From a virus (lineage: Duplodnaviria; Caudoviricetes): a DNA stretch of 64,000 nt. The stretch covers positions 113,805 to 177,804 of the IMG/VR virus record IMGVR_UViG_3300014205_000177, one strand, 5' to 3'. Positions 38,325 to 49,798 of the stretch are shown piece by piece. The first letter of the stretch is position 1, and the number at the start of each line of letters is the position of its first letter. A model generated the notes under the pieces. It saw nothing but the letters and a program-made list of their open reading frames with translations. It was not told the DNA's origin and searched no databases. Made by a program: the position numbers and the translations under genes.

Positions 38325-38417
38325 GCTAGTGTGGCTGAGTGGTCTAAAGCAGCGCACCTGTAATGCGCCGAGTTCATATCAATGGCTCCGTGGGTTCAAA
38401 TCCTACCACTAGCTCCA
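38325..38417 (+). tRNA. tRNA-Thr(UGU), atypical (C33, long variable arm)
   Basis: Acceptor GCTAGTG/CACTAGC, stem GCGCA/TGCGC, loop CCTGTAA, CCA; a Tyr reading needs a broken stem. Confidence 0.7.
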
Positions 38418-38497
38418 GTCTTCCGGCTTCGTAAAAACGAATATAATAACATAGCAATATGTGAAGCGGATATTCCCAGCCGGTTTTATTTTAGAAT

Positions 38498-38575
38498 GGG
38501 GCAATAGCTCAGTTGGCTTAGAGCATCTCGCTTGCACCGAGAAGGTCCAGGGTTCAATTCCCTGTTGTTCCACCA
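38498..38575 (+). tRNA. tRNA-Ala(UGC)
   Basis: Cloverleaf, loop CTTGCAC, G3:U70, CCA. Confidence 0.93.
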
Positions 38576-38583
38576 TTTTACGT

Positions 38584-38661
38584 TGGCTAGTAGCTCAGTT
38601 GGTAGTAAGCGTTCGCCTGTTAAGCGAAAGGTCGCACGTTCGAACCGTGCCTAGCCAGCCA
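38584..38661 (+). tRNA. tRNA-Asn(GUU)
   Basis: Loop CTGTTAA, CCA. Confidence 0.92.
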
Positions 38662-38709
38662 ATTTTATTAACAATGTGTGTTAATATTATTCTAGTTTAA
38701 AATAATTTT

Positions 38710-38795
38710 TGCAGGGATAAGTCTCGGAAGACTGGTAAGGCTCATAACCTTATGCGGAAACGCTGAGTGGGTTCGACTCTCCACCCCTGCTACCA
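38710..38795 (+). tRNA. tRNA-Met(CAU), initiator-like, extra variable hairpin
   Basis: Loop CTCATAA; 1:72 mismatch; GCGGAAACGC V-arm. Confidence 0.75.
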
Positions 38796-38863
38796 TTTCT
38801 CTACCAGAGGTAGGGATATTATAAAGGGTTATCGCTGTCCCCGTCTGACGAAACAGCGAACGT

Positions 38864-38939
38864 GGCTCGTATGGATAATGGCTATCCACAAGTATCATAA
38901 ACTTGTTTAAGGTGGGTTCGATTCCCCCACGAGCTACCA
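38864..38939 (+). tRNA. tRNA with CAU anticodon (Met or Ile2)
   Basis: Stem CAAGT/ACTTG, loop ATCATAA, CCA. Confidence 0.75.
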
Positions 38940-38948
38940 ATTTAAAAC

Positions 38949-39024
38949 GGGGATGTAGCTCAATTAGGAGAGCATCGGTCTGTCGAACCGAAGGTCGTGG
39001 GGGCAGAACCCATCATCCTCGCCA
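38949..39024 (+). tRNA. tRNA-Asp(GUC)
   Basis: Loop CTGTCGA, G73, CCA. Confidence 0.9.
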
Positions 39025-39032
39025 TTTTATAT

Positions 39033-39109
39033 GCTCGGTTAGCTCAATTGGCTAGAGCACTTGGTTTACACCCAAGTTGTTACAGATTCGAGTTCTGTAC
39101 CGAGTACCA
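39033..39109 (+). tRNA. tRNA-Val(UAC)
   Basis: Loop TTTACAC, CCA. Confidence 0.92.
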
Positions 39110-39118
39110 GTTTTATAT

Positions 39119-39208
39119 GGGGAGGTAGCTCAGAGGCAGAGCGTCGGGCTAGGTGGTGAAAACCACCGAATCTGAAGGTCGCTGGTTCGAATCCAGCCTT
39201 CCCCACCA
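39119..39208 (+). ncRNA. tRNA-like RNA with a hairpin inserted in the anticodon loop
   Basis: Intact acceptor, D and T arms and CCA; loop reads CTA-GGTGGT-GAAA-ACCACC-GAA. Confidence 0.8.
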
Positions 39209-39213
39209 GTTTC

Positions 39214-39287
39214 GTTGCGAGATAATATAATTTTTAGTACCCCATTGTGGATGGGAAATGTTGGTGAAAATCCAACTCTCGCAACCA
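39214..39287 (+). tRNA. tRNA-His(GUG), degenerate
   Basis: G-1, loop TTGTGGA; D-loop lacks GG; T-loop atypical. Confidence 0.55.
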
Positions 39288-39312
39288 TTTTTTAAAAAAA
39301 TAGAAAAGTAAT

Positions 39313-39340
39313 TTGTTTTTGAAGTAAATTATGCTATATT
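39313..39340 (+). promoter_or_regulatory. Internal promoter in tRNA array 1
   Basis: TTGTTT-N16-TATATT with TGC. Confidence 0.6.
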
Positions 39341-39431
39341 TTAAAGTATAAGAAAGTTGTTGGATAATTACCAACTGAACTCTGAGGTTATGGGAATATC
39401 AGAGAGAGATTAACAAATAACCCGTACATAT

Positions 39432-39505
39432 CAGAGCGTGAGATAATGGTAGTCGTCCTTCCTTGGAAGAAGGGGGTGGTCGTTCGAATCGACCCGCTCT
39501 GACCA
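39432..39505 (+). tRNA. tRNA-Pro(UGG)
   Basis: C1:G72, loop CTTGGAA, CCA. Confidence 0.9.
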
Positions 39506-39555
39506 TTTTAAATTTAACCATAGTGGTTTAAATAAAAAATAACATAGGAAAAGTT

Positions 39556-39762
39556 ATGGAAGAAGATTTAATTCCTGAAATTTGGGAAAACGGAAAGGGG
39601 AGAACAAAACCCTTTGTAAAAAGTAAGAAAAACAATTATGAAGAACCCAAAAAAAGATTTGGGATAATTGGTAAGAAAAAAGTAAAAGAAAATAGAGAAC
39701 TTCAAGATATAGATGAAGTAGAAGATAAAATAAGTTCTTCTATACTTAGTAAAATTAAATAA
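39556..39762 (+). CDS. Small Lys-rich hypothetical protein
   Basis: 68 aa; AGGA RBS. Confidence 0.6.
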   Translation: MEEDLIPEIWENGKGRTKPFVKSKKNNYEEPKKRFGIIGKKKVKENRELQDIDEVEDKISSSILSKIK

Positions 39763-39767
39763 TATGT

Positions 39768-39843
39768 GTCCGGTTCTTCTAGTTGGACAGGATAAGGGAC
39801 CTTCACTCCCTCGACACGGGTTCGAATCCCGTACCGGATACCA
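39768..39843 (+). tRNA. tRNA-Glu(UUC), C33
   Basis: Stem AGGGA/TCCCT, loop CCTTCAC, CCA. Confidence 0.85.
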
Positions 39844-39846
39844 TAA

Positions 39847-39922
39847 AGCCCTGAAGTGTAACGGCTGCACACTTGTCTTTGACACAAGTAGACTTATGGT
39901 TCAACTCCATGCAGGGCTGCCA
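39847..39922 (+). tRNA. tRNA-Gln(UUG)
   Basis: Loop CTTTGAC, G73, CCA. Confidence 0.88.
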
Positions 39923-39930
39923 GTTTTCGA

Positions 39931-40005
39931 GTTCCCTTAATTCAGAGGAAGAAATTATCGGTCCTAACGATAAAGTCGCTGGTTCAAGTCCAGCAGGGAA
40001 CGCCA
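39931..40005 (+). tRNA. tRNA-Arg(CCU)
   Basis: Stem TATCG/CGATA, loop GTCCTAA, CCA. Confidence 0.82.
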
Positions 40006-40019
40006 GTTTTGTTTTATGT

Positions 40020-40052
40020 GTGCCAGTAGCTGAGAGGATAGAGCAGTGGTTT
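40020..40052 (+). pseudogene. tRNA 5'-half remnant
   Basis: GTGCCAG-TAGCTGAGAGGATAGAGCA-GTGGTTT stops at the anticodon loop, just before the endonuclease gene. Confidence 0.6.
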
Positions 40053-40123
40053 AAATTAAATATTTAAGATTGACGTGTGTTCGATTCAATGTTTCGATGG
40101 TATTATATAAAAAGGAGTTTTAT

Positions 40124-41102
40124 ATGAAAGCCATTGAAATAGATTGGAAATTAGTTCAGGAATACCATAATAATGAGCACTGCTTGAGTGATGTCATGAA
40201 AAATTTTAAGGTTTCAAGAGCATCCATAGATACAGCGGTAAAACATGGATGCTTTGTTAAAAAATATTTTAAACAAGAACACACTGAGGAAACAAAGAAG
40301 GCAATATCTGAAAAAAGGAAAAAATGGTTGGCAGACAATCCAGATAAACATGTATGGAAAAGGAAGGGAAAATTCAAATCTGAACCATGCGAAGTATTAA
40401 AGAAAAAAACTTGAAGAAAATGGAGTTAGTTTTTATCCAGAATTTTCACCAATAGAAAGCCATTCATTCTCTTTAGATATAGCTTTTCCAAAAGATAAGT
40501 TTGGCATAGAAATAAATGGAAACCAGCACTATGAAAGAGACGGTAGACTAAAGGATTATTATCAGAAACGACATGATTTAATCGTTGCAGATGGTTGGGA
40601 ACTATTGGAAATACCTTGTGCTATGGTTTGGAACAAGGAGTTTATTGATGGTTTAATAGAATCACTTAAAACTAAGGTCTGCGGTTTTGAGTATAAAGAA
40701 CAAGTGGAAGAATATAATAAAAAGAAAAGAGAAAAGTATATTTGCCCGACTTGTGACAATAGAAAGAGCAAAAACTCGATGCTTTGTAGAAAGTGTTCTT
40801 TTAAGCCGAAAGTAAAAAAGCAAGTAGTCAGAATTTTTGTAAATAAAAACCATATGTGTCCGAATTGTAAAAACGCTAAAGATGCAAAAGCGGTTTTATG
40901 TAAGGAATGCTTTAGTTTGTCAAAGAGGAAAGTTGAAAGACCAAATAAGGAAGAGTTGGAAAAATTGGTCAAAGAGTTATCGATGACTAAGATAGGCAAG
41001 ATGTTCGGAGTTAGCGACAATGCCGTAAAAAAATGGTGTAAAATTTATGAAATAGAATTAGGAGACAGACGAGGGTACTGGGCAAAGATTTATGCAAGGT
41101 GA
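40124..41102 (+). pseudogene. Frameshifted Vsr/DUF559-like homing endonuclease (NUMOD3-like, nuclease, Zn fingers, HTH)
   Basis: Removing one A from the A7 run at 40403-40409 joins both ORFs through LDIAFP...IEINGNQH...GWELL. Confidence 0.75.
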
Positions 41103-41110
41103 TTTAACAT

Positions 41111-41185
41111 GGTCTCATAGCTTAACGGATAAAGTTCGTGTCTTCTAAACACGCCATTCGGGTTCAATTCCCGATGAGACCTCCA
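41111..41185 (+). tRNA. tRNA-Arg(UCU)
   Basis: Stem CGTGT/ACACG, loop CTTCTAA, CCA. Confidence 0.88.
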
Positions 41186-41206
41186 ATTTTAAAAAAGGAA
41201 TTTTTT

Positions 41207-41464
41207 ATGAAAAGAGCTAGACCTATTTACTCACTAGGGCAGTATTATAGAAACAGGGGCACTCATAAACGAGAAGAAGCAATAAGCGAAGACGAAGAAC
41301 ATAGTCCATTAACTAGAGCCAAGAGAGAATCAAATTTACCTGACTCTTGGGATACAAAAAAGATTTGCAGACCTAAGACATGGAAGAGGAGATGCAAGAA
41401 AGCAAAACAGTGGATGAAACATTTTATGACAGATTTAGAAAAGAAATTTATAAGAGGAGAATAA
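41207..41464 (+). CDS. Basic hypothetical protein
   Basis: ATG 41207 with AAGGA RBS; RAKR..LPDSWD...WK motif. Confidence 0.7.
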   Translation: MKRARPIYSLGQYYRNRGTHKREEAISEDEEHSPLTRAKRESNLPDSWDTKKICRPKTWKRRCKKAKQWMKHFMTDLEKKFIRGE

Positions 41465-41467
41465 ACG

Positions 41468-41572
41468 ATGAGTGGAAAAGGATGTAAGAGAAGACCTCAA
41501 CAGATAAGCGAAGAAAAAATGCAAAGCAATTGGGAAAAAGCATTTAACAAAGGAAATAAAAAGAAAAAATGA
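41468..41572 (+). CDS. Small phage protein (MSGKGCKRRP...NWEKAF)
   Basis: 34 aa; GAGGAG RBS; ATGA overlap with the next gene. Confidence 0.65.
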   Translation: MSGKGCKRRPQQISEEKMQSNWEKAFNKGNKKKK

Positions 41573-42156
41573 GTGAAGTATTGGTTTTAAACAAGCTATG
41601 GCAACCAGTTAAAGTTATTAACGTATGGGATGCAATTTGCAAAGTATATCAAGATAAAGCTTCTTTTTTAGATGCTAATTATGTTATGCATAATTGGGAA
41701 TCTTGGGTTATATCATGGAAAGATGCAGAAATTCATGCAAAAGATATGATACATGGTTCATCTTGTTCTATTAGAAAACCAACTGTAATTGTTTTAAAAA
41801 ACTACAGTGGGTATGTTTTTAAAAAACCAAAGATGAGTAGGCGTAACATTTACTTAAGGGATGCAAACCAGTGCCAATATTGTGGTATAACATACGAAAC
41901 AAAGAAACTAAATATAGACCATATTATACCTAAATCTCATGGGGGAAGAACTCAATGGACTAATGTAGTAGTTTCATGTATAAAATGTAATAGTTTTAAA
42001 GCAGATAGAACTCCTGAACAGGCAGGAATGAAACTTTTAAGAAAGCCAAAAGCTCCTACCTGGAAAGATGTTAACATGGAAGCTTTTCAAAGAAATTATT
42101 CTAATTGGCACGGTCTGTTAAATGACATGTACTGGAATGTTACTTTAGAAAAATAG
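41569..42156 (+). CDS. HNH endonuclease (McrA-like)
   Basis: VLVLN...RD..CQYCG...DHIIPKSHGG...N...C..CN..K. Confidence 0.9.
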   Translation: MSEVLVLNKLWQPVKVINVWDAICKVYQDKASFLDANYVMHNWESWVISWKDAEIHAKDMIHGSSCSIRKPTVIVLKNYSGYVFKKPKMSRRNIYLRDANQCQYCGITYETKKLNIDHIIPKSHGGRTQWTNVVVSCIKCNSFKADRTPEQAGMKLLRKPKAPTWKDVNMEAFQRNYSNWHGLLNDMYWNVTLEK

Positions 42157-42235
42157 AATTATAAGATTGACAAATAAAAAAAAGATGCTATACTTAATAA
42201 GTGTAGCATTTTTTATATATAAATAAGGAGATAAA

Positions 42236-42622
42236 ATGAGTGAAAAAATTGTAATGGGTAAAATGTTTTCTATTGAAAATAAAAACAAAAAAACCGGTGA
42301 AAATGAAAAATACATAGCCGTTTATGTAGAAGACGAAAGCGGAAATGAAGAAACCGAAAGGTGCTTACTATTTACGGAAATAGAGCTTTCCGACATGGAA
42401 AAAGTTGTACTTCCATTTGTTAAGAATACAATGAAAAAAGGAAGAATTTATTCTGTTATTATAGACAAAAAAGAAACAAATCTTTTAAAAGTAGAAACAG
42501 AACGTAATGGAAATATTATTTTTAGGGTTTCTAATTCTCAACTTAAATCGGCAGAAGAAAGGGTTAAAAGAAATCCAGAAGATGTTGAAAAGAAAGATTT
42601 TATAACTGATTTACTTGACTAA
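42236..42622 (+). CDS. Hypothetical protein
   Basis: 128 aa; AAGGAG RBS; promoter upstream. Confidence 0.75.
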   Translation: MSEKIVMGKMFSIENKNKKTGENEKYIAVYVEDESGNEETERCLLFTEIELSDMEKVVLPFVKNTMKKGRIYSVIIDKKETNLLKVETERNGNIIFRVSNSQLKSAEERVKRNPEDVEKKDFITDLLD

Positions 42623-42631
42623 CAAGGAAAT

Positions 42632-42865
42632 ATGATGAAATTAAAAATAAAATGTCCAGAATGTAAAAGGGAACATCTTGTCACTATATCAAATGAACAA
42701 CCTATTATGGAAATTAAAAAGATAAAATGTTTATCTTGTAGTATAATTATAAAATATAGAATAGGAATAAAAAAAGAAAATACCAGTGATAGTTCTTCTA
42801 AACTTTTTGATAGTATGGGAATGTTTGGAGATGTTTTTAAAAATATTATGGGGAGTAAAAGATGA
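42632..42865 (+). CDS. Zn-ribbon protein
   Basis: CPEC...CLSC. Confidence 0.65.
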   Translation: MMKLKIKCPECKREHLVTISNEQPIMEIKKIKCLSCSIIIKYRIGIKKENTSDSSSKLFDSMGMFGDVFKNIMGSKR

Positions 42866-43188
42866 TAGGTACAATAGAAGTGGTAAATAAATATACATAT
42901 GAAGGTGATTATATAGATATAATGAGAGGAACTCCACTTGGTAATCCATATATAGTTTCTGATTCAATGAGCAGAGAACAATCAGTTTTAAATTTTTATA
43001 AATATTTCAGAAAAGAATTTTTTAAAAAAACAGATGTATATAATGCAATAATGGAGATAGTTGAAAAGGTTAAGTCTGGAGAAAATGTAAAAATTAAATG
43101 TTGTTGTAAACCAAAATTATGCCATGGCGATATTATAAAAATTGCAATAGAAAGTATTTTAGAAAAACAAATTAGAAATAATACTTGA
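42862..43188 (+). CDS. DUF4326-like protein
   Basis: IMRGTPLGNPY...CCCKPKLCHGDII. Confidence 0.8.
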   Translation: MIGTIEVVNKYTYEGDYIDIMRGTPLGNPYIVSDSMSREQSVLNFYKYFRKEFFKKTDVYNAIMEIVEKVKSGENVKIKCCCKPKLCHGDIIKIAIESILEKQIRNNT

Positions 43189-43343
43189 TTTTTAAAAATA
43201 TTATGCTATAGTTAATATTATAAAATTTCTTATTATGAGAAATTAAAAAAAAGAGGTAAAAAATGATGTAGAATAATAAATCTCCATAACGTGTTTCTTT
43301 GTTTTAATGATTTTAATAATAATAATAAACAAAGGAGAGTATA
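43185..43343 (+). promoter_or_regulatory. Promoter, amber-interrupted leader and RBS-sequestering hairpin
   Basis: TTGATT-N16-TATAGT; GAGGT RBS; ATG ATG TAG AAT AAT AAA TCT CCA TAA at 43263-43289; 43294-43304 pairs with 43327-43337. Confidence 0.65.
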
Positions 43344-43718
43344 ATGAATACTTTAAGAAACACGAACGAAGAAGTAATAGATTTGAAGAAAGAGGAATAT
43401 AAGAAGAATATTAAAAGGATGAAGGCTAACGTTAAACTGGTGTCAAATAACATAAAAGAAATGAAAGAAGAATTAAAGACTAAGCAAAAAAAAGGTGATT
43501 ATAAAAGTTGGTCTTTAATGAGTGATTTAAATTCTTATAAAAATGATGTCAGAAATACACATATAGCTTATGCTATGGCAAAAGGGAGAGTCTACCAAAA
43601 AATTGAGTCAAAAGTTAGAGATAACAATGAACCAAACTGGTGGGCAATAAAGGCAAATATAGAAAATTTCTTCGGAAAGAAATTTGAAATTGTTGACTTC
43701 AAGGTAAACTTTCTATGA
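43344..43718 (+). CDS. Hypothetical protein upstream of Pth2-like gene
   Basis: 124 aa; RNTHIAYAMAKGRVYQKIE motif. Confidence 0.75.
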   Translation: MNTLRNTNEEVIDLKKEEYKKNIKRMKANVKLVSNNIKEMKEELKTKQKKGDYKSWSLMSDLNSYKNDVRNTHIAYAMAKGRVYQKIESKVRDNNEPNWWAIKANIENFFGKKFEIVDFKVNFL

Positions 43719-44017
43719 AAAAGGTATTTATAATAACCAGGAAAGACCTTGAAAATGGAGCAAGAATAGTTCAGTCTGTTCATTCATTCCATGAGTTGGC
43801 AAGAAAAAATGAAGAAATATTGAATCAGGTATATAATACAATATGTTACAAAATAGAAGACGAACTATCATTAAAAGAAGTTTCTGAGAGGATAGCAAGT
43901 AATCTAAACGAAAAAGAATATGCATGGTTCAGAGAAACAGATTACAATAATCAATTGACCTCTTTTGCAGTCTTTACAAACAAGAAAGAGCTGTTTAAAG
44001 GTTTAAGATTGGCGTAA
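43715..44017 (+). CDS. Peptidyl-tRNA hydrolase 2-like protein
   Basis: IITRKDL..GARIVQSVH...FRETDYNNQLTSFA...LF..LRL pattern. Confidence 0.7.
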   Translation: MKKVFIITRKDLENGARIVQSVHSFHELARKNEEILNQVYNTICYKIEDELSLKEVSERIASNLNEKEYAWFRETDYNNQLTSFAVFTNKKELFKGLRLA

Positions 44018-44021
44018 TAAA

Positions 44022-44051
44022 TAGGGAGGAGTAAATCCTCCCATTATTTTA
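44022..44051 (+). terminator. Intrinsic terminator
   Basis: GGGAGGA/TCCTCCC stem with T-rich tail. Confidence 0.65.
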
Positions 44052-44067
44052 TAAAAAATGGAGAAAA

Positions 44068-44538
44068 ATGAGCAATAAAGAAAATTATTTTTTAGACCTA
44101 GCACTTAGAAGTGCTCATCAAGGTTCCTGTACAAGAAGAAACTACGGAGCAATTATAGTAAACGAGAAAAAGCATATAGTAGCAACTGGTTATACAGGAA
44201 ATGTATCAGGAGAAGAGCACTGTAATAGTCTTGGAATTTGCTGGAGAAAAGAGAATAATATTCCAAGTGGAACCTCCTACGAACGCTGTAAATCAATACA
44301 TGCCGAACAGAATGCGTTAATTCAAGCCGGTAAAGAATCTTATGGTTCTGTAATATATATTGCCGGATATGATGTAGAAACAGGAAGGGAAATAGCTGGT
44401 ATACCTTGCTTTATTTGTGCAAAACTAATTGTTAATGCTGGAATATCTTCTATTATATATAGAGATACATCTTTAGTGTTCAGGAAGGGTCCAGTTGCCC
44501 ATTATCGTGAACTAGAAAGAAAAATATTTGGAAAATAA
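44068..44538 (+). CDS. dCMP deaminase (ComEB-like)
   Basis: HAEQNA and PCFIC zinc motifs. Confidence 0.88.
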   Translation: MSNKENYFLDLALRSAHQGSCTRRNYGAIIVNEKKHIVATGYTGNVSGEEHCNSLGICWRKENNIPSGTSYERCKSIHAEQNALIQAGKESYGSVIYIAGYDVETGREIAGIPCFICAKLIVNAGISSIIYRDTSLVFRKGPVAHYRELERKIFGK

Positions 44539-44550
44539 TAGTTTATGGTG

Positions 44551-44578
44551 TTGTTTTTTTATAAAGTAATGCTATAAT
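44551..44578 (+). promoter_or_regulatory. Promoter of tRNA array 2
   Basis: TTGTTT-N16-TATAAT with TGC. Confidence 0.75.
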
Positions 44579-44718
44579 ATAATCAACAGCCACCGATATA
44601 GAAATATACGGTAATGTATAGCTCATCTGCCAGGTGTAGAGTGAGTTTCCGAGAATGACGATGACAAAATTCAAAGTTGTTCTCCGTTTTTAAAAAAAAA
44701 TAAAAGGAATTATATTAA

Positions 44719-44790
44719 ATGATGAACGTTTTTAAAAAGATTAGTTTTGGTCGTTGGGGTTTTAAACCTCACGTCCGTCTATTCTTGTAA
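44719..44790 (+). CDS. Attenuator leader peptide 2 (MMNVFKKISFGRWGFKPHVRLFL)
   Basis: AAGGA RBS; codons match all 8 array 2 tRNAs. Confidence 0.82.
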   Translation: MMNVFKKISFGRWGFKPHVRLFL

Positions 44791-44816
44791 CGTTTATCGT
44801 TAGTTGTTGGAGAAGT

Positions 44817-44850
44817 AGGCGGACTAGAAATAGTTCGCCTTTTTGTTTTT
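44817..44850 (+). terminator. Attenuator terminator 2
   Basis: AGGCGGACTA-GAAA-TAGTTCGCCT plus TTTTGTTTTT; alternative pairing with 44773-44785. Confidence 0.85.
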
Positions 44851-44852
44851 AT

Positions 44853-44928
44853 GGGTTGATAGCAAACGTGGTCAATGCATACCGTTGAAGCCGGTACTAC
44901 TTCGGTTCAATTCCGAATCAACCCACCA
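44853..44928 (+). tRNA. tRNA-Phe(GAA)
   Basis: Loop TTGAAGC, CCA. Confidence 0.88.
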
Positions 44929-44938
44929 GTTTATGTGA

Positions 44939-45029
44939 GCAAGGTTGTCTTAGCGGCTTGAGAAACCGACTTTTAATCGGTCAGAGGGTAATGCCTCGTA
45001 GGTGGGTTCGACTCCCACACCTTGCACCA
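44939..45029 (+). tRNA. tRNA-Lys(UUU) with long variable arm
   Basis: Stem ACCGA/TCGGT, loop CTTTTAA, V-arm GAGG/CCTC, CCA. Confidence 0.82.
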
Positions 45030-45040
45030 TTTTATAGTAT

Positions 45041-45125
45041 GCGTCGATGTCATAGCGGTTGTGAGGCTGACTCTTAATCAGTGAGAGAAATCTCTAGGTG
45101 GGTTCAACTCCCACTCGGCGCACCA
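45041..45125 (+). tRNA. tRNA-Lys(CUU) with long variable arm
   Basis: Loop CTCTTAA, V-arm GAGA-GAAA-TCTC, CCA. Confidence 0.82.
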
Positions 45126-45137
45126 AGTTTTTTGTGT

Positions 45138-45211
45138 ATGTCTATAGTTCAATAGTAGAACGGGAGTCTCCAAAACTCTTGACGAGGGGGCAGTACCTTC
45201 TAGACATGCCA
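45138..45211 (+). tRNA. tRNA-Trp(CCA)
   Basis: Loop CTCCAAA, G73, CCA. Confidence 0.88.
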
Positions 45212-45220
45212 GTTTTATAT

Positions 45221-45296
45221 GCGCTGTTAGCTCAGTTGGAAGAGCCCAAAAATACGAATTTTGAGGTCGGGGATTCGAATTCTCCACGGCGCACCA
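45221..45296 (+). tRNA. tRNA-Arg(ACG)
   Basis: Stem CAAAA/TTTTG, loop ATACGAA, CCA. Confidence 0.88.
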
Positions 45297-45303
45297 TTTT
45301 CAT

Positions 45304-45379
45304 TGGCGTATCATATAACGGTCAATTATGTGAGACTGATATTCTCATCACCAAGGTTCAACTCCTTGTACGCCAACCA
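45304..45379 (+). tRNA. tRNA-Ile(GAU)
   Basis: Loop CTGATAT, CCA. Confidence 0.87.
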
Positions 45380-45388
45380 GTTATACAT

Positions 45389-45464
45389 ATTCGGTTAGTT
45401 TAGCGGCTAGAACAATACGTTGACATCGTATAAATCATGGGTTCGATTCCCATACCGAATACCA
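45389..45464 (+). tRNA. tRNA-Val(GAC)
   Basis: Loop TTGACAT, CCA. Confidence 0.88.
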
Positions 45465-45472
45465 GTTTTCAT

Positions 45473-45546
45473 GCGAATATAGTACAGTAGCAGTATTTGA
45501 CGTTGCCAACGTTAGGACGAGGGTGCAATTCCCTCTATTCGCACCA
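45473..45546 (+). tRNA. tRNA-Gly(GCC)
   Basis: Loop TTGCCAA, CCA. Confidence 0.85.
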
Positions 45547-45610
45547 TTTTTTGCAACGAAAAATATAATCTTTATGTTGCAAAACCAAGATATTGTGCTA
45601 TACTATCAAT

Positions 45611-45734
45611 GGCGGTTTAGAGAAAGGTTCATCGCCCTCTAACAAGGGAGGGATTGCAGTAGATTCACCGTGGAAGAAAAGTACATCAGTGAAGGAACCA
45701 ATCCAATGTTTTTTCGATAAAACAATCGCCACCA
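45611..45734 (+). ncRNA. Structured RNA with tRNA-like ends
   Basis: GGCGGTT/AATCGCC-A-CCA; T-arm-like GTTTT-TTCGAT-AAAAC; promoter just upstream. Confidence 0.55.
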
Positions 45735-45792
45735 TTTGACATTTATAAAAATCATGCTATTGTACCTCAACAAACTAAAAAGGAGATATGCA

Positions 45793-46191
45793 ATGTGTAT
45801 CAAAATCAAGGCGATGGAAAATGGAGTAATGATTCAAAGCAGAGAAGAATATGAAGATATAATGGATATTCTATTGGATGCAGGTCTTCGGACAGTGAGT
45901 GGAAAATATTTTGGAGAATGTGACTGGTTTAATGAAACCGGAACCGAAACAGTTATAGATTTGAGAAATCTGGAGTCTATTGCATATGGTGAATATCAGT
46001 ATTTTATTGATAATGATATCCCGGTTTGTAATTTCCAGGATTTTCTTACAGAACAGGGTTTAACACCAAACGGATGCATTAGCGGTGAACAACAGATATT
46101 TATGCGTAGGGCAAAGTTGAAATGTCCAAAAATGAAAAAGAAAGAAATCAGAAGACTTGCAAAGGCAATCGTGAGGGAGATGAACAAATGA
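45793..46191 (+). CDS. Hypothetical protein
   Basis: AGGAG RBS; promoter upstream. Confidence 0.7.
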   Translation: MCIKIKAMENGVMIQSREEYEDIMDILLDAGLRTVSGKYFGECDWFNETGTETVIDLRNLESIAYGEYQYFIDNDIPVCNFQDFLTEQGLTPNGCISGEQQIFMRRAKLKCPKMKKKEIRRLAKAIVREMNK

Positions 46192-46769
46192 AAGCAAGAA
46201 CTAAAAAAGAAGTAGTGCAAATAGGATTATTAGTTGATGAGAGTGGTTCTATGTATAGCCTCTCTGGTGATACAATCGGTACGGTTAATGGTTTCATTAA
46301 AGACCAGAAAAAAGTAAAAGGAGAAGCAGAAATAACAATAGCTTCATTTAATGATAACTATAAACTCATTAAAGATAGAGAAGATATCAAAAATATTGAA
46401 GAAATTACCAGCGAAGATTATTCTCCATCTGGAATGACGGCATTATATGATTCTATTATGAAAATAATTTCTTCCATAGAAGAGACAAAAGCTAAAAAAG
46501 CGATAATCGCTATTATTACAGATGGAATGGAAAACTCAAGTATTGAATATAAAGATTCAAGTGTAATTAAAGAAAAAATACAGCAGAAACAAAAAGACGG
46601 GTGGCAGATATTATTTCTAGCTGCAAATATTGACGAAAAGGCAGTGGGTGCAAGTTTCGGAATAAATGCAATGTACACTCAGGCGTTTACTCCTACAGCA
46701 GATGGCGTAATAGGTGCTATGTCATATACATCGAGATGCGTTAGTGATTACAGGGGCAATAATGATTAA
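46188..46769 (+). CDS. vWA-domain protein
   Basis: MIDAS DESGSM, GMTALYD, ITDGMENSS. Confidence 0.88.
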   Translation: MKARTKKEVVQIGLLVDESGSMYSLSGDTIGTVNGFIKDQKKVKGEAEITIASFNDNYKLIKDREDIKNIEEITSEDYSPSGMTALYDSIMKIISSIEETKAKKAIIAIITDGMENSSIEYKDSSVIKEKIQQKQKDGWQILFLAANIDEKAVGASFGINAMYTQAFTPTADGVIGAMSYTSRCVSDYRGNND

Positions 46770-46865
46770 AATAGGGATAACACAGAGAGAGGTGATGCGG
46801 CTTTAGATTTAAAATGGTTGTGTTTATTGGAAATAAATAAAAATCAAAAAAAGTTTTAAAACTAT

Positions 46866-46893
46866 TTGTTTTTATCGAAAGTAATGCTATAAT
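46866..46893 (+). promoter_or_regulatory. Promoter of tRNA array 3
   Basis: TTGTTT-N16-TATAAT with TGC. Confidence 0.75.
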
Positions 46894-46932
46894 ATAGATG
46901 TGTAAGATAAATAAATTAAAAAGGAAATCATC

Positions 46933-47007
46933 ATGAACAAGTTGTTATCAAGTCATTCACTATCGCTCTCATCCTATATAGGATGCGAGATAGGTCTGCT
47001 TTGGTAA
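46933..47007 (+). CDS. Attenuator leader peptide 3 (MNKLLSSHSLSLSSYIGCEIGLLW)
   Basis: AAGGA RBS; Ser/Leu-rich codons match array 3 tRNAs. Confidence 0.82.
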   Translation: MNKLLSSHSLSLSSYIGCEIGLLW

Positions 47008-47034
47008 TACTTTTTAGATATTCCCAGTTTTTAA

Positions 47035-47071
47035 AAAGAGCAGACCGTAAAAAGTCTGCTCTTTGTTTTTG
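47035..47071 (+). terminator. Attenuator terminator 3
   Basis: AAAGAGCAGAC/GTCTGCTCTTT plus GTTTTT; alternative pairing with 46993-47002. Confidence 0.85.
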
Positions 47072-47080
47072 TTGTGATAT

Positions 47081-47155
47081 GCTCCAGTAACATAATGGCT
47101 AGTGTAGGTGACTTCCACTCACCCAATGAGAGTTCGATTCTCTCCTGGAGTACCA
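47081..47155 (+). tRNA. tRNA-Gly(UCC)
   Basis: Loop CTTCCAC, CCA. Confidence 0.88.
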
Positions 47156-47163
47156 GTTTATAT

Positions 47164-47261
47164 GGAAGAATAAGCCGAAAGATTCTGGGTAGCGGCAACG
47201 GTCTTGAAAACCGAAGGCTCTAAAACAGGGCGTGTGGGTTCGAATCCTACTTCTTCCGCCA
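47164..47261 (+). tRNA. tRNA-Ser(UGA)
   Basis: Loop CTTGAAA, long V-arm, G73. Confidence 0.88.
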
Positions 47262-47303
47262 GTTTAGACTAGAAATAGTTGATGTTGTTTGAAAATTATA
47301 TAT

Positions 47304-47376
47304 GTCCCGTGAGCCAGATGGAGAGGCGATTGTCTGCAAAACAATGGAAACAGTTCGATTCTGTAACGGGACTCCA
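47304..47376 (+). tRNA. tRNA-Cys(GCA)
   Basis: Loop CTGCAAA, U73, CCA. Confidence 0.87.
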
Positions 47377-47384
47377 GTTTATAA

Positions 47385-47476
47385 GGAGATGTAATCCTAA
47401 AGGCAAGGAAAGAGTTTGCTAAACTCTTAGTAACCGAGAAATCGGCGTGGGTTTTCAAGACACCCCATCTCCGCCA
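47385..47476 (+). tRNA. tRNA-Ser(GCU)
   Basis: Loop TTGCTAA, long V-arm, G73. Confidence 0.82.
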
Positions 47477-47550
47477 GTTTTAAGTAGACAACTCACTATG
47501 TCATAAAAGTACCAAGAGGGCGACATAGTAATCAGAATAGAATATTATTT

Positions 47551-47626
47551 CCGCAGGTAGCTCAGGGGTCAGAGCTCTATTCTTATAAAGTAGCTGTCAG
47601 TGGTTCAATTCCACTCCTGCGGACCA
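47551..47626 (+). tRNA. tRNA-Ile(UAU)
   Basis: Stem CTATT/AGTAG, loop CTTATAA, CCA. Confidence 0.85.
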
Positions 47627-47637
47627 TTTTAAAATAA

Positions 47638-47725
47638 GGGTGTTGTCCCCCACGGAAGTCTGTAAAACTTTTGACATATGTAAGTGGGGTGGCGTCAAGT
47701 GGTTCAATTCCACCAATACCCACCA
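47638..47725 (+). tRNA. tRNA-Tyr(GUA), non-canonical fold
   Basis: Loop CTGTAAA; 8-bp acceptor, 4-bp T stem; no normal D-arm. Confidence 0.65.
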
Positions 47726-47752
47726 TTTTTAGGCGACTTAGCGGTCGTCTTT

Positions 47753-47883
47753 GAGCGCACAACGCCTAGTAATCTAAGTGGCATCCAAAGTTGCTCTTGG
47801 TGCTTAGAGGGCTTGTATTTCGAGTGTGGTTTGCAACAGCCCACATGAGAAGCATATAGGTATTGCCGGAAGATTGTGTGCTC
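47753..47883 (+). ncRNA. Unidentified structured RNA
   Basis: Closing stem GAGCGCACAA/TTGTGTGCTC enclosing two hairpins. Confidence 0.5.
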
Positions 47884-47893
47884 TAAATTTTAT

Positions 47894-47984
47894 GGAAGTT
47901 TGCCGGAGATGGATTATCGGCTCTCATTGGAAATGAGATGGTCACTTAAGTGGCACGAAGATTCGAATTCTTCAACTTCCGCCA
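47894..47984 (+). tRNA. tRNA-Ser(GGA)
   Basis: Loop TTGGAAA, long V-arm, G73. Confidence 0.88.
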
Positions 47985-47992
47985 GTTTTAAT

Positions 47993-48125
47993 GGGGGTGA
48001 AATTTATTCGATTATGGTTTCGCAATGTGGTAGCTTGGAAGCAATGGTAGCAAATGCACTTGAAAACTCTACCATCCACACTTAGGAAACCGTAAGACCT
48101 GGGTTAAATCCCAGCACTTCCACCA
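47993..48125 (+). ncRNA. Minimal tmRNA-like RNA, 133 nt
   Basis: GGGGGTG/CACTTCC-A-CCA with G3:U70; ATTCGA D-loop analogue; helix TTATGGTTTC/GAAACCGTAA; GAC then T-arm. Confidence 0.7.
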
Positions 48126-48130
48126 GTTTT

Positions 48131-48305
48131 GGTAAACGTGAAGACGAAGATTGAGGAATGGTTTGTTTTGGACGAACGCCCCGTTATCCATGGGGAGAAG
48201 ACATAAAACTCAGCACCAAGTCATTTCGTGGTGGCGTTGCCAGAGAAGTTATGGGTACGATTGTGGCTCGTATTTAGACCGGAGCATTACCGGTACGTCA
48301 CCCCA
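48131..48305 (+). ncRNA. Structured RNA with tRNA-like 3' end
   Basis: GGTAAACGT/ACGTCACC-CCA; ACCGG-N7-CCGGT; several internal hairpins. Confidence 0.45.
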
Positions 48306-48315
48306 ATTTTTATGT

Positions 48316-48392
48316 GCGCCTATAGGAGAATTGGCATATCCGTCTGGTTTAGGCCCAGAATTTTCTCGGTTCGAGTCCGAGTAGGCGTACCA
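48316..48392 (+). tRNA. tRNA-Leu(UAG), short variable loop
   Basis: Loop TTTAGGC, CCA. Confidence 0.85.
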
Positions 48393-48447
48393 CATTTTTT
48401 AGACTAGAAATAGTCGACGTTGTTTGAAAAAGTATATATGAAAATAT

Positions 48448-48724
48448 CCCCATGTGGCGGAATGGCAGACGCAACGGACTTATTAATTTGAGCCTTATAT
48501 TGGAAACTTTATAAGTGGACATGGCTAATTCGGTGAATCCTTTAATATGGTAACGCCGAGCTATCGAAAGAGAGTGTAGAGACTTTACACCATGTGCCTA
48601 AGTCTATGAAGATATGGCAAAGACAAAGTCCAGACCACGCAAGAAGAGAGTAGTGAAAACTATAGTGGTACGAAAATTCGTCGCCCGTTAGGGCGTGAGG
48701 GTTCGACTCCCTCCTTGGGGACCA
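48448..48724 (+). tRNA. tRNA-Leu(UAA) split by a group I intron
   Basis: Exons 48448-48481 and 48673-48724 rebuild loop CT-TAA-AA. Confidence 0.9.
48482..48672 (+). mobile_element. Group I intron (trnL-UAA type), 191 nt
   Basis: Inserted U^AA; P AATTCGGTGAA, Q AACGCCGAGC, R GTAGAGACT, S AAGACAAAGTCC; terminal G. Confidence 0.9.
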
Positions 48725-48802
48725 AATATTTATGTTATAGTTATTTTTTTGTGTTATTTGCATCTGCCATGTTATATTATAATAAAACAGCGGGAGTAAA
48801 TA

Positions 48803-49717
48803 ATGAAATATACAAAAGAGATGCTAGAAGAGGCAATTAAAAATAATGTTAGTTTTGCGGGAGTTCTAAAAAGTTTTGGATTACATCCGTCCGGTGGTAG
48901 TCATAGACTAATAAAATCAAAAGCATTAAGTTTTGGAATAAGTACGGAACATTTTCTTGGAAAGGCATCAAATTGCGGAAGTAGGTACAAAGGTGGGTTA
49001 GAAAAAATAAGTTTTTCAGATGTGTTAGTGTACGATAGAAGAAATGGAATGAGGGAGAGTGCCTCTAAACTAAAAAGGTCTATGCTGGAAAGCGGGATAG
49101 AATATAAGTGCGAAAAGTGTAACAATGATGGTGTCTGGATGGATGGTTTTGTGTCTTTGGAGGTTCATCACAAAAATGGAGATACTTTTGACAACACAAA
49201 AGAAAACCTTGTATTTATATGTCCCAATTGTCACAGTCAAACTGACAACTTTCGTGGAAGAAATAAGGTTGAAAAAGATATTCAACAAATAAGAACAGAA
49301 GAGGAGGTTGTTGCAGCACTTCTAAAGAGTAAAAATATAAGACAATCACTTATAGAACTAAATTTGGCTCCATACGGAGGTAATTACGATAGGATTAAAA
49401 GAGTAATGATAAAAAAGGATATTGAGTTCAATAAAAAAGAAAAGAAAACTGCAACATGTCCGTCGTGCGGAAATAAAAAAGATTACTCCAGCGCAGAATG
49501 TAGAAAGTGCGCAAGTATAAAGAGAGGTTTGGCAGAAAGAAAAGTTGAACGTCCATCAAAAGAAGGCTTGGAGAAAATGATTGCTGAACTTCCAATGACA
49601 AAGATTGGAAAAATGTTTGGAGTAAGTGATAATACTATTAGAAAATGGTGTAAGAATTACGGAATAGAATTAGGTAATAGATTAGGATACTGGACGAAGA
49701 TAAAATATAGCAAATAA
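48803..49717 (+). CDS. HNH homing endonuclease with C-terminal Zn finger and HTH
   Basis: CEKC...LEVHHKNGD..DNTKENL...CPNCHSQT. Confidence 0.9.
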   Translation: MKYTKEMLEEAIKNNVSFAGVLKSFGLHPSGGSHRLIKSKALSFGISTEHFLGKASNCGSRYKGGLEKISFSDVLVYDRRNGMRESASKLKRSMLESGIEYKCEKCNNDGVWMDGFVSLEVHHKNGDTFDNTKENLVFICPNCHSQTDNFRGRNKVEKDIQQIRTEEEVVAALLKSKNIRQSLIELNLAPYGGNYDRIKRVMIKKDIEFNKKEKKTATCPSCGNKKDYSSAECRKCASIKRGLAERKVERPSKEGLEKMIAELPMTKIGKMFGVSDNTIRKWCKNYGIELGNRLGYWTKIKYSK

Positions 49718-49721
49718 ATAT

Positions 49722-49798
49722 GGTCTCGTAACCGAATTGGCATAGGTATCGTGCCCAAACCACGAGTTTTATGGGTTCGACCCCCATCGAGACCACCA
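49722..49798 (+). tRNA. tRNA-Leu(CAA), C33, short variable loop
   Basis: Stem TCGTG/CACGA, loop CCCAAAC, CCA. Confidence 0.78.

Follow-up and report, generated by a model that had tools for sequence, protein, structure and literature searches.

The 64,000-nucleotide stretch analyzed here (the window) belongs to a complete, circular, 178-kb phage genome (C2). It contains a small operon in which a promoter-like site and an 8-codon leader ORF precede two genes. The first, which we call geneA, encodes a protein of an uncharacterized phage family, and the second encodes a protein resembling the Pth2 peptidyl-tRNA hydrolases. The features are summarized in Table 1.

Table 1. Features of the leader and the two-gene operon (window coordinates)
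Position	Strand	Feature	Description
43185..43212	+	Promoter-like site	Sigma-70-like; TTGATT, 16 nt, extended -10 TGcTATAGT (9 of 12 in a consensus scan, plus TG); overlaps the stop codon of the upstream DUF4326 gene
43253..43257	+	Shine-Dalgarno (SD) of the leader	GAGGT, 5 nt before the leader ATG
43263..43289	+	Leader ORF	Met-Met-UAG-Asn-Asn-Lys-Ser-Pro-UAA; UAG at 43269-43271, Pro codon at 43284-43286, UAA at 43287-43289
43290..43304	+	Predicted masking strand, directly after the leader stop	43290-43298 pairs with 43356-43364 (P1); 43294-43304 (TTTCTTTGTTT) or 43299-43304 pairs with the SD region (P2)
43327..43364	+	Predicted masked ribosome-binding region of geneA	AAACAAAGGAG at 43327-43337 covers the SD AAGGAG (43332-43337), six bases before the ATG at 43344; start-codon hairpin P3 (43336-43342 with 43348-43354, ATG in the loop); 3' strand of P1 (43356-43364)
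43344..43718	+	geneA	124 aa; ends in ATGA overlapping the start of the next gene
43715..44017	+	Pth2-like gene	100 aa; predicted Pth2 fold; coupled to geneA by the ATGA overlap
44024..44052	+	Intrinsic-terminator-like hairpin	GGGAGGA...TCCTCCC with a T-rich tail; ends the operon

An earlier note, made from the sequence alone, had proposed that the hairpin between TTTCTTTGTTT and AAACAAAGGAG hides the ribosome-binding site of geneA, and all of the sequence elements it listed are at the stated places. This hairpin (P2) is present in the minimum-energy fold of short constructs, but it is weak and AU-rich, and its energy is not distinguishable from that of shuffled sequences (z = -1.1). When more downstream sequence was included, the fold became a three-way junction that still buries the ribosome-binding site. 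Taken alone, the mini-ORF is also unremarkable, as an SD followed by ATG and an ORF of 3 codons or fewer occurs 35 times on the 178-kb contig. The leader is not repeated elsewhere on the contig and is therefore not a general promoter motif, and the sequence TAGAAT within it, which resembles a -10 box, has no -35 partner in any lineage.

What lifts the leader above chance is its conservation. The same leader is present in syntenic loci of related phages (L001/L002 and L011), with the same length and frame in L001 (MM-UAG-NNIPP-stop) and L011 (MM-UAG-NRKPP-stop). Its first 16 nt, AAAATGATGTAGAATA, form the longest invariant run in an 850-nt three-way alignment, against 8 nt for the next longest, although the flanking proteins are only 38-56% identical (38-42% for geneA). 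Codons 5-8 vary at every third position, with four synonymous differences, and the last sense codon remains Pro (CCA/CCG/CCG). The relatives also keep an SD, although its sequence and spacing differ: AGGAGG at 8 nt in L001, AGGAGG at 5 nt in L011, and GGGGTG at 6 nt in the distant relative L003. In L003, a near-identical promoter arrangement, TTGATT-17-TGCTAGAAT, precedes the leader, and a GC hairpin similar to that of the window follows the Pth2-like gene in L001 and L011. The first 20 nt of geneA are 14/16 invariant at the DNA level. YGUGU after the leader stop and ACAC in codons 6-7 of geneA are kept in all three close lineages, with one U-A/C-G compensatory pair, and CUUUGUU/AACAAAG versus CUUGUU/AACAAG is a matched one-pair deletion. 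However, this covariation rests on three sequences and is not significant (44 of 500 shuffles), and RNAalifold on the MAFFT alignment gave no convincing consensus because the spacer does not align.

We next asked, as the earlier note had suggested, whether an in-frame TAG and a Pro-stop are conserved upstream of homologous operons, and found this to be the case more widely than expected. An HMM-based search that set no condition on the leader identified analogous leaders in 21 of 34 distinct regions upstream of geneA homologues. These share the layout of a start, 0-4 codons, UAG, a few codons, Pro or Pro-Pro, a stop, and then about 55 nt; in about half of the 21, the final stop lies 54-59 nt before the geneA ATG. 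The leaders are unrelated in sequence and include M-UAG-LLKPP-stop (L003), ML-UAG-SIKKPP-stop (L019), ML-UAG-VKKPP-stop (L068), MM-UAG-IANRGSP-stop (L072), MR-UAG-ISYKPP-stop (L074 group), MKHL-UAG-IDIRPP-stop (L034), MKDK-UAG-IKIRSP-stop (L027), and MKNR-UAG-NHTRPP-stop (L029). All 14 distinct leader types end in Pro directly before the stop, and the stop inside the leader is always UAG. Hits are on the strand of the module, with only 2 on the other strand; three other pattern matches on the window's contig are evidently chance. The remaining 13 of 34 upstream regions lack the short canonical leader, although several have longer TAG-containing upstream ORFs. Because the lineages counted are related, these statistics overstate independence. 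Other searches were unproductive: blastn and tblastn of the region against GenBank phages, searches for related loci in IMG/VR with either protein or with a further query (A2), and pattern scans for the leader in IMG/VR or GTDB genomes found nothing, word-indexed searches with the single proteins returned only the query, and a search of Rfam gave only noise. Six metagenome matches to the leader have no SD, lie in unrelated contexts, and are chance.

GeneA has homologues in 55 ORFs of related loci, all on the module's strand, but no Pfam, PHROG, PDB, or Atlas match. The leader belongs to this family rather than to the Pth2-like gene as such; in some phages the order is leader, geneA, and then directly a suppressor tRNA, with Pth2 elsewhere. 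For the 100-aa protein, the designation Pth2-like is appropriate, although the evidence is indirect. The window protein has no PF01981 hit at E <= 0.1, but 28 of 35 relatives do (best 1.2e-12), and the family profile hits solved Pth2 structures at 8.6e-11. A single-sequence structural model was poor (pLDDT 53), whereas an AlphaFold2 model based on a 35-row alignment reached pLDDT 97.6, and its 12 best Foldseek matches in the PDB are Pth2 or Pth2-fold entries (2zv3, 1q7s, 2gax, 1wn2, 1rlk, 3erj, and 1xty), with TM 0.71-0.78. In the profile alignment to 2zv3, the GKGK loop is shortened by two residues and the DAG aspartate aligns with the family-invariant Glu-74; the family has its own invariant set, R9, Q20, H23, L53, E74, and T82.

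The window's phage encodes an amber-suppressor tRNA(CUA), which ARAGORN places at C2:18254-18329 with an encoded CCA end, about 39 kb from the operon. The genome is otherwise standard-code: union ORF coverage is 86.7% in the standard code and 88.5% with TAG read as sense, and only a dozen weak candidates for TAG-joined ORFs were found. Of 75 IMG/VR loci with this Pth2-like gene, 64 have a tRNA(CUA) within 4 kb on the same strand; it is the commonest anticodon there (64 of 478 tRNAs) and the only tRNA in 9 loci. It lies next to the Pth2-like gene in L016, L017, L018, and L021, follows geneA by 25-45 nt in five lineages, and is annotated next to the "peptidyl-tRNA hydrolase" of Mycobacterium phage Alice.

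Amber codons also occur inside the Pth2-like genes. Codon 27 is TAG in both L001 and L011, where the window has GAG, and the 26 codons upstream show 8 synonymous against 5 non-synonymous differences and keep the family-invariant R9, D11, Q20, and H23. Of 65 distinct IMG/VR genes, 26 start with ATG, 1-3 codons, and TAG, followed by the conserved core.

To examine whether a ribosome on the leader could expose the geneA ribosome-binding site, we folded 18 distinct leaders with a ribosome footprint imposed. A ribosome at the UAG did not lower the predicted opening cost, whereas a ribosome at the final stop lowered it by a mean of 6.0 kcal/mol; 16 of 18 leaders dropped by more than 0.5, and 11 of 18 beat all 30 shuffled-spacer controls. 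In the window, the predicted cost is 7.0 kcal/mol free or with a ribosome at UAG and 4.6 with a ribosome at UAA. This modeled relief of 2.5 kcal/mol is modest, being reached by 3 of 30 shuffles, and in L001/L002 and L011 it is about zero. In L003, the masking arm starts at the last base of the leader's UAA and is a perfect complement of the SD.

Together, these data suggest, with moderate confidence and in the absence of any experiment, that the leader is a translational switch that senses amber readthrough, most likely by the phage's own suppressor tRNA. In this model, ribosomes load at GAGGT and translate Met-Met. If release factor 1 acts at the UAG, the ribosome leaves 18 nt before the masking strand, the geneA ribosome-binding site stays buried in the P1/P2/P3 junction, and neither geneA nor the coupled Pth2-like gene is translated. 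If the UAG is read through, the ribosome would continue for five codons to Ser-Pro-UAA, where termination after proline tends to be slow, and with UAA in the A site it would cover roughly the next 12 nt, which is the 5' strand of P1/P2. The junction would then open, freeing the SD and ATG of geneA, with the Pth2-like gene following by coupling. The two proteins might handle or tune the consequences of amber suppression, for example by recycling peptidyl-tRNA, but this is a guess. The geometric argument of the earlier note, that only a ribosome reaching the Pro-UAA could open the hairpin, holds in the folding models. Its proposal of a response to impaired termination is refined here to likely readthrough by the phage tRNA, and its reference to minigenes and peptidyl-tRNA drop-off is not needed.

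Other readings are less likely. The leader could sense the activity of host release factor 1, with the operon turning on whenever termination at UAG is impaired by stress, release factor 1 depletion, or a phage anti-RF1 factor. The design would measure the ratio of termination to readthrough whatever sets that ratio, the window's tRNA(CUA) is distant, and a peptidyl-tRNA hydrolase would fit a response to translation trouble. However, the tight linkage of tRNA(CUA) to the module is hard to explain if the tRNA were irrelevant, and near-cognate readthrough of UAG without a suppressor would normally be very low, making this reading unlikely. Still more doubtful is that the functional unit is only the two-codon minigene Met-Met-UAG, promoting drop-off or acting as a start-stop ribosome trap, with the conserved downstream bases serving as RNA structure only. 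The form is present, the neighbor is a predicted Pth2-fold protein, and the bar minigenes of phage λ can be toxic when peptidyl-tRNA hydrolase is limiting. Nevertheless, this does not explain why the frame stays open for exactly five more codons in three lineages, why all leader types end in Pro before the stop, or why the internal stop is always UAG, and the number of codons before the UAG varies from 1 to 5, so the leader is not a fixed dipeptide.

A switch of opposite polarity, in which stalling at the Pro-stop turns the operon off through mRNA cleavage or occlusion so that the two proteins are made only before the suppressor tRNA becomes active, is similarly improbable. Stalled ribosomes can trigger mRNA cleavage and rescue, and the direction of regulation has not been measured, but a final stop 54-59 nt before the geneA start is too far for steric occlusion, the folding models predict unmasking, and the UAG inside many Pth2-like genes can only make their synthesis depend on readthrough. 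A chance short ORF with a weak hairpin in an AT-rich spacer, although in line with the frequency of such ORFs on the contig and the unexceptional hairpin energy, is very unlikely and is contradicted by the comparative data.

We found no published description of this module. As in the ermC, cat, and cmlA leaders and the arrest-peptide systems SecM-secA, MifM-yidC2, and uDF_RQH-secDF2 (PMC10987492), a short ORF with its own SD precedes a ribosome-binding site, here predicted to be held in a stem whose 5' strand would lie within the footprint of a ribosome paused at the leader's end. In those systems the pause is set by a drug, by secretion, or by membrane insertion, whereas here an in-frame UAG near the start would decide whether the ribosome reaches the pause site at all. 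Published leaders ending in N-S-P-stop or N-A-P-stop stall with the stop codon in the A site, and their last Pro is essential (PMC10987492). These peptides are about 100 residues long, carry a localization signal, precede sec/yidC genes, and have no internal stop codon. The window's peptide has only 8 residues, with Lys at -3 and Asn at -4 and -5 instead of the Asn at -3 and Lys at -5 of the known peptides, and its downstream genes are unrelated to sec; a pause at its Pro-stop is therefore assumed. It also lacks the Arg-Ala/Gly-Pro-Pro motif of the RAPP/RGPP arrest peptides, ending in N-K-S-P, whereas L001 ends in I-P-P and L011, L003, L019, and L068 end in K-P-P; only distant members (L069, L045, L034, and L029) end in RGPP or RPP.

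Autoregulation of prfB likewise uses an early in-frame stop codon to measure how efficiently that stop is read, but through a +1 frameshift at a UGA within the gene itself and in response to RF2, and the product here is not a release factor. The bar minigenes of λ share the form of an SD followed by a two-codon ORF and are connected to peptidyl-tRNA hydrolase, but have no conserved in-frame continuation. The same logic as proposed here underlies engineered tnaC or trp-type leaders with amber codons (reviewed in PMC6412442), of which this would be a natural counterpart, linked to a natural suppressor tRNA and usable in synthetic circuits that respond to amber suppression. Stop-codon recoding has been described as a timer of phage late genes (bioRxiv 10.1101/2021.08.26.457843), and suppressor tRNAs without known targets occur in standard-code jumbo phages such as XacN1 (PMC5852040); neither paper mentions Pth2 or such leaders, and in the window the UAG sits in a proposed regulatory leader rather than in a late structural or lysis gene.

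How a phage times or monitors a change of genetic code in its host is poorly understood (PMC10879173), and the module offers a plausible natural sensor of stop-codon readthrough and a conserved candidate target for the suppressor tRNA. A more speculative possibility, which we regard as unlikely but not excluded, is that the leader, geneA, the Pth2-like protein, and the suppressor tRNA form a self-monitoring controller, in which the two proteins feed back on suppression itself, for example by acting on release factor 1 or on charged or peptidyl suppressor tRNA, giving the phage a sharp or homeostatic switch of the genetic code in a standard-code host. Finally, mycobacteriophage gp150 has ATG TAG or GTG TAG just before its GTG start, but the SD spacing fits the GTG, and we did not count it as a gate.

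We first examined the operon at the sequence level. The earlier note had described a promoter, a ribosome-binding site and a short ORF interrupted by an in-frame TAG, followed by a strand able to hide the ribosome-binding site of the next gene, and our analysis confirmed the stated letters at the stated positions, with a promoter-like site before them. The U-rich strand directly after the TAA of the leader can pair both with the Shine-Dalgarno (SD) region of the next gene and with codons 5-7 of that gene, which encodes a 124-aa protein (geneA) and overlaps the start of a gene for a 100-aa Pth2-like protein by ATGA. On its own, this arrangement is unremarkable, as the energy of the hairpin is ordinary for its base composition (z about -1), and an SD followed by ATG and an ORF of three codons or fewer occurs 35 times on the contig. 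A near-perfect 9-bp palindrome lies just downstream of the -10 box, at the predicted 5' end of the leader transcript, where it could be an operator or a 5' stabilizing hairpin, but it is not present in the two close lineages L001 and L011 described below.

Coordinates of the features in the phage genome and in related loci
Sequence	Coordinates	Feature	Details
Contig C2	113805-177804	Window	Last 64 kb of the contig
Contig C2	18186-18249 (= L012 4187-4250)	tRNA-like piece	Outside the window
Contig C2	18254-18329	tRNA(CUA)	Outside the window
Window	38325-49798	Three tRNA arrays	25 tRNA genes around the operon
Window	39119-39208	tRNA-like gene	GGTGGT-GAAA-ACCACC hairpin
Window	43185-43212	Promoter-like site	TTGATT, 16 nt, TGcTATAGT
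Window	43224-43244	Near-perfect palindrome	AATTTCTTA...TGAGAAATT
Window	43253-43257	SD of the leader	GAGGT
Window	43263-43289	Leader ORF	
Window	43290-43304	U-rich strand after the leader TAA	
Window	43327-43337	SD region of geneA	AAACAAAGGAG
Window	43344-43718	geneA	124 aa
Window	43356-43364	Codons 5-7 of geneA	Can pair with the U-rich strand
Window	43715-44017	Pth2-like gene	100 aa
Window	44024-44042	Terminator-like hairpin	
Window	44068-44538	dCMP deaminase gene	156 aa
L011	9512-10372	DUF4326 gene, spacer and geneA	One frame interrupted only by two TAGs
L011	10717-12465	dCMP deaminase gene	582 aa, with intein
L004	3477-3599	Longer uORF before geneA	In-frame TAG
L020	3559-3636	Longer uORF before geneA	In-frame TAG
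L098 (Mycobacterium phage Alice)	2465-2480	ATG TAG before the annotated GTG start	
L099 (Myrna)	2466-2481	GTG TAG before the annotated GTG start	

The window belongs to a 177.8-kb, 30% GC contig (C2) whose last roughly 123 nt repeat its start, so the contig is a complete circular or terminally redundant phage genome, binned within a 4.0-Mb, 33% GC bacterial assembly. The genome carries 27 tRNA genes, one of which has the anticodon CUA and a normal cloverleaf with an encoded CCA end. The genome is nevertheless standard-code: ORFs of 100 codons or more cover 86.7% of it in code 11 and 88.5% with TAG read as sense, and only a dozen weak candidates for TAG-joined ORFs were found.

The 100-aa protein has no direct Pfam hit. 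An exhaustive HMMER search gave 40 relatives. Of the 35 relatives that were aligned, 28 hit PF01981 (Pth2), and their profile hits solved Pth2 structures at 8.6e-11. An AlphaFold model built with that alignment (pLDDT 97.6) matches only Pth2 structures, with TM 0.71-0.78. The family has its own invariant residues (R9, Q20, H23, L53, E74, and T82) and a shortened lysine loop, so these data show the predicted Pth2 fold but not the chemistry.

Inspection of the contigs of the nearest relatives revealed two syntenic lineages. In L001/L002 the order is geneA, Pth2-like, and dCMP deaminase. L011 is a 145-kb contig with the same order from the HNH gene through DUF4326 to the deaminase, and with tRNA arrays on both sides; its deaminase carries an intein (Pfam Intein_splicing). 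The geneA proteins of these lineages are only 38-42% identical to that of the window, and the nearest Pth2-like relative is 56% identical. Yet the leader is found in the same place, length, and frame, in each case preceded by an SD.

Leader codons in the window and the two syntenic lineages
Lineage	Leader codons	Following bases
Window	ATG ATG TAG AAT AAT AAA TCT CCA TAA	CGTGT
L001	ATG ATG TAG AAT AAC ATT CCA CCG TAA	TGTGT
L011	ATG ATG TAG AAT AGA AAG CCG CCG TAA	CGTGT

The 16 nt AAAATGATGTAGAATA are the longest invariant run in an 850-nt three-way alignment of the leader plus both genes, in which the next longest run is 8 nt and 47% of columns are invariant overall. Codons 5-8 of the leader differ at every third position, with four synonymous differences, and the last sense codon stays proline. 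This is the pattern expected if the frame is translated beyond the TAG. Furthermore, in both L001 and L011 the Pth2-like gene itself has an in-frame TAG at codon 27, where the window has GAG. The 26 codons before it show 8 synonymous against 5 non-synonymous differences between the two lineages and keep the invariant residues of the family, indicating that this part is still translated as part of the protein and that the TAG is read through there. In L011, the DUF4326 gene, the spacer, and geneA would form one 286-codon frame with TAG read through; this is probably a coincidence of frame, and it is not so in the window, where DUF4326 ends in TGA.

The contexts of more distant family members showed the same theme in different letters. 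The leaders M(TAG)LLKPP-stop in locus L003 and ML(TAG)SIKKPP-stop in locus L019 precede homologues of geneA, whereas in loci L017, L018, and L022 the Pth2-like ORF itself begins with a start codon, one to three codons, and TAG. Genes for tRNA(CUA) lie next to the Pth2-like gene in L016, L017, and L018, and 2.2 kb away in L021. We then scanned IMG/VR with a sub-alignment of the family, which returned 75 loci. Of these, 64 have a tRNA(CUA) within 4 kb on the same strand; CUA is the commonest anticodon near these genes (64 of 478 tRNAs; the next has 29), and in nine loci it is the only tRNA. Of 65 distinct genes, 26 start with ATG, 1-3 codons, TAG, and then the conserved core, with the TAG followed by A in 22 and by G in 4. 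In the cultured Mycobacterium phage Alice, the annotated "peptidyl-tRNA hydrolase" gp150 is followed 250 nt later by an annotated "tRNA-suppressor (cta)". The annotated GTG start of the "peptidyl-tRNA hydrolase" is directly preceded in frame by ATG TAG in Alice and by GTG TAG in Myrna, although the SD spacing fits the annotated GTG, so this may be only a conserved spacer.

We conducted a regular-expression search (start, 0-2 codons, TAG, 2-7 codons, CCN, stop). Leaders were found on the strand of the module in many loci, and only two on the other strand; on the window's own 178-kb genome, the search gave three evidently random hits besides the real one. Each such leader lies upstream of a homologue of geneA, 49-118 nt before its start and most often 54-59 nt, and each geneA is followed either by the Pth2-like gene or, within 25-45 nt, by the tRNA(CUA) itself. 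To remove the bias of that pattern, we built an HMM of geneA, which found 55 ORFs (34 distinct upstream regions), and listed every ATG-started uORF with a TAG in its first five codons. Of the 34 regions, 21 have a short one that ends in Pro-stop. They fall into 14 sequence types, all ending in Pro, and in about half of them the final stop is 54-59 nt before the geneA start. Several of the remaining regions have longer TAG-containing uORFs that also end in Pro-Pro. The distant relatives L004 and L020 have longer uORFs that start alike (MKTF.../MKTS...), contain an in-frame TAG at codon 11 or 7, and run into a CCUCC anti-SD near their end (ending PPD-stop in L004); they may be a long-leader version of the same switch. 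These results indicate that the leader belongs to geneA, for which no match was found in Pfam, PHROGs, the PDB, or the ESM Atlas.

We next assessed RNA structure. With downstream sequence included, the window and L011 fold into a three-way junction, in which P1 joins the bases right after the stop of the leader (YGUGU...) to ACAC in codons 6-7 of geneA, P2 joins CUU(U)GU to the SD, and P3 holds the start codon in its loop. P1 is paired in all three close lineages, with one U-A to C-G compensatory pair, and P2 differs by a matched one-pair deletion; with three sequences, this is suggestive only (44 of 500 shuffles). In L003, the arm that starts at the last base of the leader's UAA is a perfect complement of the SD (z = -1.8). 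We then imposed a ribosome footprint (15 nt before to 12 nt after the first base of the A-site codon) on 18 distinct leaders and computed the cost to open positions -15 to +6 of geneA. A ribosome at the UAG did not lower the opening cost, and relief was measured against this state. A ribosome at the final stop led to a mean drop of 6.0 kcal/mol, with 16 of 18 leaders dropping by more than 0.5 kcal/mol and 11 of 18 beating all 30 shuffled-spacer controls. These counts are not independent trials, as the lineages are related. The effect was smaller in the window, at 2.5 kcal/mol (3 of 30 shuffles as high), and about zero in L001/L002 and L011.

Together, these data support a reading in which ribosomes that terminate at the UAG never reach the masking strand, whereas ribosomes that read the UAG through run five more codons to Pro-UAA, where release is slow, and the paused ribosome opens the junction so that geneA and the coupled Pth2-like gene are translated. 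Slow release is inferred here: published leaders ending in N-S-P-stop or N-A-P-stop stall with the stop in the A site, and their last Pro is essential (PMC10987492), and RAPP/RGPP motifs, seen in some distant members here, give robust arrest (PMC12992588). We have high confidence that the module is real, whereas the specific on-switch mechanism is only moderately favored over its alternatives, because everything rests on comparison and folding models.

Chance can be set aside as an explanation, even though the short ORF and the hairpin are each ordinary when taken alone. The earlier note proposed that the operon turns on when termination is impaired, and this interpretation is supported, with the trigger refined to amber readthrough by the phage's own suppressor. 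Termination failure would be the same measurement with a different cause, but the tight linkage with tRNA(CUA) makes the suppressor the likely cause of readthrough. As for the two proteins, a hydrolase that recycles peptidyl-tRNA when stops are being overridden is a reasonable guess, and feedback on suppression itself is the more interesting possibility.

We found no description of a link between Pth2-like genes, such leaders, and suppressor tRNAs in the full-text literature searched, and the module is apparently unpublished. The nearest known systems are leader-peptide attenuators and arrest-peptide uORFs, which share the proposed mechanism. The autoregulation of prfB shares the feature of an early stop codon acting as a sensor, engineered UAG-containing leaders share the logic (PMC6412442), and the published idea that recoded stops time late phage genes shares the theme (bioRxiv 10.1101/2021.08.26.457843). 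The element of the window lacks the motifs of RAPP/RGPP and of N-S/A-P-stop leaders; it would work like them but is not a member of either.

Finally, this phage carries two tRNA-like sequences. The tRNA-like gene within the window has intact acceptor, D, and T arms and a CCA end, but a hairpin lies where the anticodon loop should be, and ARAGORN calls the anticodon "(ag)"; of all 70 tRNAs of the assembly, it is the most similar (74%) to the amber-suppressor tRNA. ARAGORN found no tmRNA on the contig. Directly before the suppressor tRNA lies a roughly 60-nt tRNA-like piece that has an acceptor stem, a D arm, a T arm, and a CCA end, but apparently no anticodon arm.
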